Of a stretch of 11,400 nt of DNA, positions 299 to 421 are shown one piece after another. The position numbers were made by a program, and so were the translations under genes. The stretch lies in UHGV virus genome UHGV-1549577; one strand, given 5' to 3'. Under the pieces are notes generated by a model, which did not search any database, was not told the DNA's origin, and saw nothing but the letters and a program-made list of their open reading frames with translations. Every line of letters starts with the position of its first letter. Positions within the stretch are counted from its first letter, which is position 1. The stretch comes from a virus.

Positions 299-421
299 AG
301 TTAACATGTTAACTGGCTGCCCGGGCATTTTTGCGGTTTTTATCTTTATTATTCAGTTTGTTGTGCGGAAAAAATGTTAACAGGCTTTTTCAGCAAATGT
401 TAACCAGGCAGCAGTTAACAT
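299..421. promoter_or_regulatory. Putative cos/packaging recognition region with clustered GTTAAC motifs
   Basis: Five GTTAAC hexamers at 300, 308, 376, 399 and 414. A perfect 16-bp palindrome AGTTAACATGTTAACT lies at 299-314. Direct repeats AAATGTTAAC(C)AGGC lie at 372-385 and 395-409. The region sits between the HNH and terS genes, where HK97-like phages carry cos. The function is inferred, not shown. Confidence 0.4.

Follow-up and report, generated by a model that had tools for sequence, protein, structure and literature searches.

The virus genome UHGV-1549577, analysed here as a single window of 11,400 nucleotides, carries a cluster of GTTAAC hexamers between its HNH endonuclease gene and terS, the gene of the small terminase (TerS). 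From comparison with related loci, we consider it likely that this cluster is a docking array for TerS, resembling the cosB element of phages with cohesive ends (cos), in an HNH-dependent cos phage with 3′ overhangs. Docking arrays of the cosB type are a known kind of element, and this one has most likely not been described before for the Shiga toxin (Stx) phage family concerned. An earlier sequence-only reading of the window had proposed positions 299-421 as a candidate cos or terminase-binding region. The array does occupy the position of a cosB, whereas the cut itself (cosN) falls not within 299-421 but at 257-266. Positions given with a sign are counted from the right-hand nick.

The repeat array between the HNH gene and terS

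The GTTAAC cluster, the palindrome and the direct repeats described in the sequence-only reading are all present where it had placed them. In the window sequence, GTTAAC starts at positions 300, 308, 376, 399 and 414. The window as a whole contains seven copies vs 1.36 expected, a number reached by none of 200 shuffles. The true repeat unit exceeds the hexamer: ATGTTAAC occurs five times over both strands, in the orientation order -, +, +, +, -, with all copies lying within 300-421 and none in the rest of the window. With the 291-bp intergenic region simulated 20,000 times under a first-order Markov model, GTTAAC appeared at most twice per simulated region, and any 8-mer attained five copies once (1/20,000).

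The array lies between cosN and terS and covers +34 to +153, to the terS side of the cut. Its proximal pair (298-315, without assigned strand) consists of sites 1 and 2, with hexamers at +34 and +42; in this pair the palindrome AGTTAACATGTTAACT (299-314) widens to the 18-bp palindrome CAGTTAACATGTTAACTG (298-315). Sites 3 (372-385, plus strand, AAATGTTAACAGGC, hexamer at +110) and 4 (395-409, plus strand, AAATGTTAACCAGGC, hexamer at +133) contain the direct repeat AAATGTTAAC at 372-381 and 395-404. Site 5 is an inverted copy (411-425, minus strand, GCAGTTAACATTTGC, hexamer at +148) and builds, together with site 4, the perfect 12-nt inverted repeat GCAAATGTTAAC/GTTAACATTTGC at 393-404 and 414-425. 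GCAGTTAACAT is also present twice, at 297-307 and 411-421. Sites 2 and 3 are separated by 68 bp in the window and by 67-68 bp in all classes of loci with a long HNH-terS spacer. Between them lies a segment rich in T-tracts (325-363, plus strand), including T5 runs at 328-332 and 337-341 and others. It ends with a match resembling a site for integration host factor (IHF), ATTCAGTTTGTTG (351-363), which has one mismatch to WATCARNNNNTTR and is not above chance for the whole window.

Position of the cohesive ends

The position of the cut can be read from two relatives. The record of phage Lys8385Vzw, which is 95-97% identical and encodes a TerS 95.7% identical to that of the window, starts with CTCACGCAGAG and ends with GGACACCGCCCCCCCT. 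Its break corresponds to window 266/267, and by this homology the right-hand nick is placed between 266 and 267. Lys8385Vzw has been reported as a cos phage whose cohesive ends are 3′, with CGCCCCCCCT as cos sequence at the genome end, as determined by PhageTerm (PMC7946995). The linear record of Burkholderia phage Bcep176, whose TerS is 37% identical to that of the window, begins and ends with the identical 10 nt CGCACGTTCC, a terminal repeat that aligns at the same spot of the conserved core GACCGCACGTTCC/CTCACGCGCAGAAAA. The Bcep176 ends are a second line of evidence for the cut position, independent of Lys8385Vzw. Nothing useful was found in the literature on the genome ends of Bcep176, and the evidence from this phage consists of the identical 10-nt termini of its record. 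Other Burkholderia phage records starting near terS were considered as evidence for cos and set aside, as they begin at arbitrary points; the record and paper of phi330 hold no information on ends.

By homology to Lys8385Vzw and Bcep176, cosN is predicted to be the 10-nt 3′ cohesive end CGCGCCCCCT at 257-266 (plus strand). This places the virion end of the window 33 bp left of the array, and the array outside cosN. Among near-identical phages the cohesive-end sequence varies (CGCGCCCCCT, CGCCCCCCCT, CGCCCCCCGT and CGCGCCCCGT), so that mismatched ends could arise from co-resident prophages.

The right flank of the cut (267-297, plus strand), which reads CTCACGCAGAGAAAAAATTCCCG and onward and, from +12 to +17, contains an A6 tract, is near-invariant from Escherichia coli to Erwinia, Pantoea and Burkholderia relatives. 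The left flank (205-256, plus strand) is collinear with relatives from several genera. It holds a G-run at 213-222, GTAAAAAACGATCG at 233-246 and the GGACACC start at 251-257. A cosQ-like role for the left flank or its G-run is possible. The G-run counts from ~5 to 12 G among relatives and recurs from E. coli to Burkholderia, about equally far to the left of the cut. In PPompW prophages, the insertion sequence (IS) ISEc20, of the IS110 family, ends inside the G-run (window ~217/218) just left of cos (L180:1046-2504). These prophages are without the HNH and lysis genes, so that the IS, cos and terS come immediately after Q and the tRNA genes. Since insertion of IS110-family elements is sequence-specific, the G-run may be a target of this family.

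Covariation of the motif with the TerS recognition helix

The N-terminal domain of TerS is modelled by AlphaFold2 as four helices (residues 4-14, 19-25, 33-41 and 44-56), with a predicted local distance difference test (pLDDT) score > 92 for residues 1-50. In this model, helix 33-41 is proposed as the recognition helix. The TerS residues that separate the motif classes, 32 (T/S), 35 (V/I/C/S) and 38 (S/W), are situated at the start of this helix or within it.

TerS relatives were gathered together with their loci from genomes and viral contigs, and those E. coli loci that have the long spacer group into distinct classes. Class A, represented by the window, L175, L177, L105 and ~100 others, combines the motif ATGTTAAC with the TerS sequence AIAAGYS[AE]KTAR[VI]KGSQL. 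Two class A variants, L086 (TerS 65% identical) and L384, contain GTTAAC with diverged flanks and inter-site sequence as well as one extra copy, and keep KTARVKG. Class B (L089, L090, L381 and L383, with L176 and L382 truncated) carries ATAAACATGTTTAT, ATGTTTAT, ATGTTTAC and GTAAACAT in the same places and orientations as class A, along with AIEAGYS[EA]KSARCKGSQL. A satellite-like class (L087, L088, L108, L109, L178 and L179) displays AAAGTTACAC repeats from +33 next to the same cosN core, and its TerS reads TARVKGWQL. The pairing of helix and motif is accordingly KTARVKG with GTTAAC, KSARCKG with GTTTAY, and KGWQL of the satellite-like class with GTTACAC.

This pairing holds throughout a tally of 111 loci. 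All 107 loci with the KTAR[VI]KG helix have 4-5 GTTAAC and zero ATGTTTAY, while the four full-array KSARCKG loci (4/4) have five ATGTTTAY or its complement and zero GTTAAC. The two truncated class B loci fit the same pairing. The TerS of L381 (P0018) joins a class B helix-turn-helix (HTH) to a central and C-terminal part near-identical to that of class A protein P0017, and the array of this locus is of class B. Hexamers are found at +34, +42, +110, +133/134 and +148/149 in three sequence classes, with spacings of 8, 67-68, 23-24 and 15 bp. The sequence-only reading had suggested checking whether related phages conserve the motif arrangement; in relatives with related terminases the positions are indeed kept, while the copies change with the putative recognition helix of TerS.

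The same comparison bears on whether the repeats might be bound by a host protein, be it an OmpR-like, a Fis-like or another nucleoid-associated factor. Being short and AT-rich and lying near phased T-tracts, the repeats would suit such a protein, and GTTACA of the satellite-like class resembles OmpR half-sites. However, elements sharing E. coli as host differ in their motif, which follows the TerS allele of the respective element. Because all switching elements come from E. coli, a host factor cannot explain the motif switch, and we regard this explanation as extremely unlikely.

A scan of viral contigs for ATAAACATGTTTAT gave at least 120 unrelated chance matches, the pattern being too AT-rich to be specific. 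An IMG/VR search with the class B HTH peptide returned 80 loci, all 89% identical to the query, and the array-bearing loci among them were tallied as class A. Class B looks rare in IMG/VR.

Conservation of the motif within class A was assessed on 49 distinct haplotypes from 102 loci, in which the loci of the IMG/VR search were reused. Between the cut and terS, polymorphism affects one motif position out of 38 (a singleton) vs 38 of 191 other positions (one-sided Fisher p = 0.004). The block 338-363, comprising T-tracts and the IHF-like ATTCAGTTTGTTG, is invariant across the 49 haplotypes. Over a larger distance, between the window and L086, 37 of 38 motif columns are identical vs 63 of the remaining 103 (p = 4e-6). 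In classes whose sequence has otherwise diverged, the T-tracts and a ATTCAnnnTGTT core are retained, and the T-tracts are phased in all classes. These alignments support purifying selection on the motif.

Proposed history of the terS start

The spacer between HNH gene and terS is short in Atlantibacter, Enterobacter, Citrobacter, Kluyvera, Erwinia and Pantoea. The layout in these relatives starts with the G-run and continues with GGACACCGCGCCCCCT/CTCACGCACAGAAAAAATTCCCCTCTGGAGGGT and then GTAAACATGTTAAC, whose ATG, at +40, starts terS. The short-spacer loci align collinearly with window 205-313, and the ATG at 306-308 within the palindrome is therefore taken as the ancestral terS start. The motif pair at +34/+42 is found in every relative examined and overlaps the terS ATG in the short-spacer relatives.

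A stretch of ~190 bp (window 314-495) is lacking in the short-spacer relatives. The E. coli Stx-phage lineage would have gained this stretch along with three extra motif copies, shifting the terS start to 496. The added stretch also brings a new Shine-Dalgarno sequence and the present start GTGCTGAC, in which the motif has been lost via synonymous changes. In remoter, GC-rich relatives the start region reads GTTAATGGCTTTAAC, and a rare TTA Leu codon is kept at terS codon 2 or 3, which hints at a DNA-level constraint on the motif inside the gene.

Short-spacer relatives (L006-L023) display a further motif-like hexamer (GTAAAC, GTTAAC or GTCAAC) at -34. The -34 and +34 sites flank cosN at a distance of 68 bp, equal to the spacing of window sites 2 and 3. 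The -34 copy of the window is a degenerate relic (GTAAAAAAC, 233-241). A 24-codon open reading frame (ORF) at 306-380 (MLTGCPGIFAVFIFIIQFVVRKKC), which runs from the ancestral ATG to a TAA in site 3, is unlikely to be a gene. L086 retains it, but in class B it is cut to 14 (L089) and 5 (L381) codons, and the ancestral Shine-Dalgarno sequence ahead of it is degraded.

Such a history raises the question of whether the repeats are non-functional scars, that is, decayed copies of the ancestral terS 5′ end (ATGTTAACAGCGCAG and onward) left by duplications when the start was displaced. ATGTTAAC corresponds to the first eight terS bases (Met-Leu-Thr) in the short-spacer relatives, and window 397-430 can be aligned by hand to the ancestral terS 5′ end at ~77%. 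Moreover, sites 2 and 3 share 13-16 nt including flanks, as expected from duplication or gene conversion. Neutral copies would decay, however, whereas the motif positions are the least polymorphic of the region, survive where the inter-site sequence has diverged by ~40% and are fixed within 1 bp across classes. In class B all copies, the inverted one too, have changed together, and the TTA codon of the GC-rich distant relatives has been kept. An origin as scars without function is quite unlikely in light of these features.

Regulation and secondary structure

The array might alternatively be a set of operators, at which TerS or another phage protein controls transcription or translation of the terminase and head genes. 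In the short-spacer relatives the proximal pair overlaps the terS start beside the Shine-Dalgarno sequence, where a bound protein could repress translation. GTTAACA also resembles a -35 hexamer, and one promoter-like match on the minus strand is made by the motifs themselves. In contrast, a promoter and terminator scan found neither a plus-strand promoter-like site nor a terminator in the region, and the genes belong to the late operon, with Q and the lysis genes upstream of them. The terS start of the window lies 75 bp past the last site and has lost the motif (GTGCTGAC), so that occlusion of the start codon no longer applies. Furthermore, the fixed distance of the first site is to the cut (+33/+34) and not to terS. 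Control of gene expression as the function of the array is unlikely on this evidence, but the same sites could serve packaging and regulation together.

Hairpins in RNA or DNA are another conceivable reason for the repeats, with the palindrome and the inverted repeat of sites 4 and 5 acting as attenuator, terminator or cruciform. Both the 18-bp palindrome and the 12-nt inverted repeat are perfect and stay self-complementary after the motif change of class B, resembling compensatory change, and a T-run follows the palindrome in L086. Against this, the folding z-score for 267-495 is only -1.54, equalled or surpassed by 17 of 200 shuffles, and no terminator was matched. No Rfam match rose above noise, a permissive threshold yielding one noise-level microRNA match. 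No pairing partner exists for site 3, nor for the tandem AAAGTTACAC repeats in the satellite-like class, and independent hairpins would need neither a common sequence nor a joint change. We consider hairpins a very unlikely explanation. The operator or late-promoter alternative offered by the sequence-only reading likewise finds no plus-strand promoter, terminator, Rfam family or unusual RNA fold in its favor.

Proposed docking mechanism

In the docking array that we favor, the five sites would be targets of the HTH domains of TerS. A TerS oligomer would hold the palindromic pair near the cut (+34/+42) together with the distal triplet (+110, +133 and +148), with the T-tract and IHF-like segment bending the DNA such that ~120 bp wraps on protein. 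The large terminase (TerL) and the HNH nuclease might thereby be anchored at cosN, one to four turns of the helix further left, for the staggered nicks. The complex would then remain on the terS-proximal end, and packaging would run rightwards. Motif and HTH allele would jointly set the packaging specificity among co-resident prophages and satellites.

Several points weigh against this reading. The cut position has been carried over from a relative, and recognition of the GTTAAC copies by TerS is deduced from covariation. By analogy with HK97, the conserved A6 (+12 to +17) could be the essential TerS site, with the GTTAAC copies being accessory. The IHF-like match, with its one mismatch, does not exceed chance for the window. 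Class B amounts to ~six loci, which are incompletely independent. Array and HTH-coding segment are 75-200 bp apart, and their association could partly reflect linkage within one recombination block. Nevertheless, the concerted change of all five copies amid drifting intervening DNA is unexplained by linkage alone.

Genes around the array and the TerS protein

The sequence-only reading had correctly named the genes on either side of the array. The 3′ end of the HNH endonuclease gene, a packaging accessory nuclease, occupies 1-204 (plus strand; Pfam PF01844, E = 4.8e-7). In BP-4795 and phage 2851, terS is immediately preceded by the full-length homologue, of 121 aa. The leader of the present terS (426-495, plus strand) contains the Shine-Dalgarno sequence GGGAGGAGG at 485-493. 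It is followed by terS (496-1059, plus strand), with PF03592 (Terminase_2) at residues 2-57, and by terL, coding for the large terminase with ATPase and nuclease (1056-2717, plus strand; PF03354 and PF20441).

In the AlphaFold2 model, TerS consists of the HTH at residues 1-56, a disordered hypervariable center and a helical C-terminal part. Foldseek aligns the N-terminal domain to the DNA-binding domain of the SF6 small terminase (4zc3) with a target-normalised TM-score of 0.84, a root-mean-square deviation of 1.6 Å and 30% identity over 56 columns. The target-normalised TM-scores of 4zc3 and 2cmp range from 0.82 to 0.84, and weaker matches are the small terminases of PaP3 and NV1. A sequence search of the PDB with TerS gave four weak matches, three of which are SF6-type small terminases and none from HK97.

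TerS has a mosaic make-up: in P0017 and P0018, two different HTH alleles precede the same central and C-terminal parts. Residues ~60-105 are hypervariable and of low model confidence, and a 15-residue stretch of this part is duplicated in P0001.

Further downstream, a 645-aa ORF (2781-4718) lies between terL and a 454-aa ORF (4930-6294), which we take as the portal gene. In BP-4795, the annotation of the homologue of the 645-aa ORF describes a fusion of major head protein with prohead protease. This fusion, together with the gene order, is unusual for an HK97-like head module.

Phage family and spread

The window corresponds to the late region of Stx-converting lambdoid phages of the BP-4795, 2851, 1717 and YYZ-2008 type, and 94 phage records match it at 94-99% identity. 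The region belongs to the packaging module of many Stx1- and Stx2-converting phages. No annotation of the HNH-terS spacer was seen in any phage record inspected. Of 5426 complete E. coli genomes, 1277 contain the spacer, in as many as seven copies each; among the E. coli genome matches listed, 0/10 had an annotation under the spacer match.

Satellite-like elements and possible exchange of packaging cassettes

The satellite-like E. coli elements (L087:1300-1500, L088, L108 and L109; L178 and L179:1650-2020) have the cosN core of the window, a TerS of their own with the KGWQL helix, and AAAGTTACAC repeats. One type carries a primase and a capsid-like gene, while the other has AlpA upstream and an island edge beside autotransporter and ccm genes. 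No TerL or HNH gene was seen beside these elements, and in L179 TerS is the sole packaging gene beside such an array. As possible cos satellites, the elements may divert the terminase of a helper by means of their own TerS.

A wider possibility, which we put forward tentatively, is that the Stx phages, other lambdoid prophages and satellite-like islands found in E. coli share cosN and TerL/HNH and swap address cassettes composed of a motif array and a TerS HTH. At least three specificities (GTTAAC, GTTTAY and GTTACAC) would then choose which co-resident element is packaged. If so, satellites with only their own TerS and array could turn the TerL and HNH of a helper to themselves. A strategy based on swapping TerS exists in Staphylococcus aureus pathogenicity islands (SaPI), and satellite redirection would be its cos-type counterpart.

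Knowledge of cosN and of the probable TerS sites would offer a rule for cross-packaging of prophages and satellites in enterohaemorrhagic E. coli (EHEC), and hence for mobilisation of toxin genes. The cosN position also helps to set correct genome ends for these phages. The loci further provide a natural series from simple to complex cosB with three specificities, in which a small terminase of the HTH type would read DNA in an HNH-dependent cos system. To our knowledge, HK97 is the only structural model for HNH-dependent cos systems, and it has a different TerS and a single site.

Comparison with known packaging systems

With regard to fold, the N-terminal DNA-binding domain of TerS matches that of G1P of SPP1 and SF6. 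In SPP1, several TerS binding sites flank the initial cut site (PMC4669245); similarly, motif copies flank the cut at -34 and +34 in the short-spacer relatives of the window. In contrast to the headful (pac) packaging of SPP1 and SF6, defined cohesive ends have been reported for a phage 95-97% identical to the window, and an HNH partner is present.

Among HNH-dependent cos phages, HK97 is the best studied. Its TerS (gp1) needs one 15-bp site at +15 to +29 containing an A-tract, and it reads this site as the DNA exits the central tunnel, via a substructure of N- and C-terminal segments (PMC11331095). The gene order HNH, cos, terS, terL is the same as in HK97, here and in relatives, and so is the 10-nt 3′ overhang, in our case by homology to Lys8385Vzw and Bcep176. 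Both systems also share an A-tract after the cut (A6 at +12 to +17 in the window) and, putatively here, TerS recognition at a short fixed distance right of the cut. Unlike HK97, the window encodes a TerS with a classical N-terminal HTH and has a repeated motif from +34 to +153 instead of a single 15-bp site.

The cosB of lambda is arranged as R3-I1(IHF)-R2-R1 over 120 bp (PMC4669245). Proteins and DNA are unrelated to those of the window, whose TerS HTH is of the Terminase_2/SF6 type and not the winged HTH of gpNu1. The overhang is 10 nt 3′ here vs 12 nt 5′ in lambda, the module includes an HNH gene, the proximal pair is a back-to-back palindrome, and there are five or six sites vs three. The overall arrangement, however, is alike to that of lambda and its relatives 21, N15 and Monarch. 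In both cases the array separates the nicking site from the small-terminase gene, sits on the end that is packaged first (putatively so in the window) and spans ~120 bp with several copies of one element in both orientations. Where lambda cosB has an IHF site and a bend between proximal and distal sites, the window has the chance-level IHF-like match with one mismatch at 351-363. Complex and simple forms of cosB both exist among lambda-like phages, and the specificities of lambda, 21 and N15 are pairs of recognition helix and R sites on one cassette (PMC4669245). Simple and complex versions likewise occur among the relatives of the window, with specificity probably set, as in the lambda family, by recognition helix and sites as a cassette.
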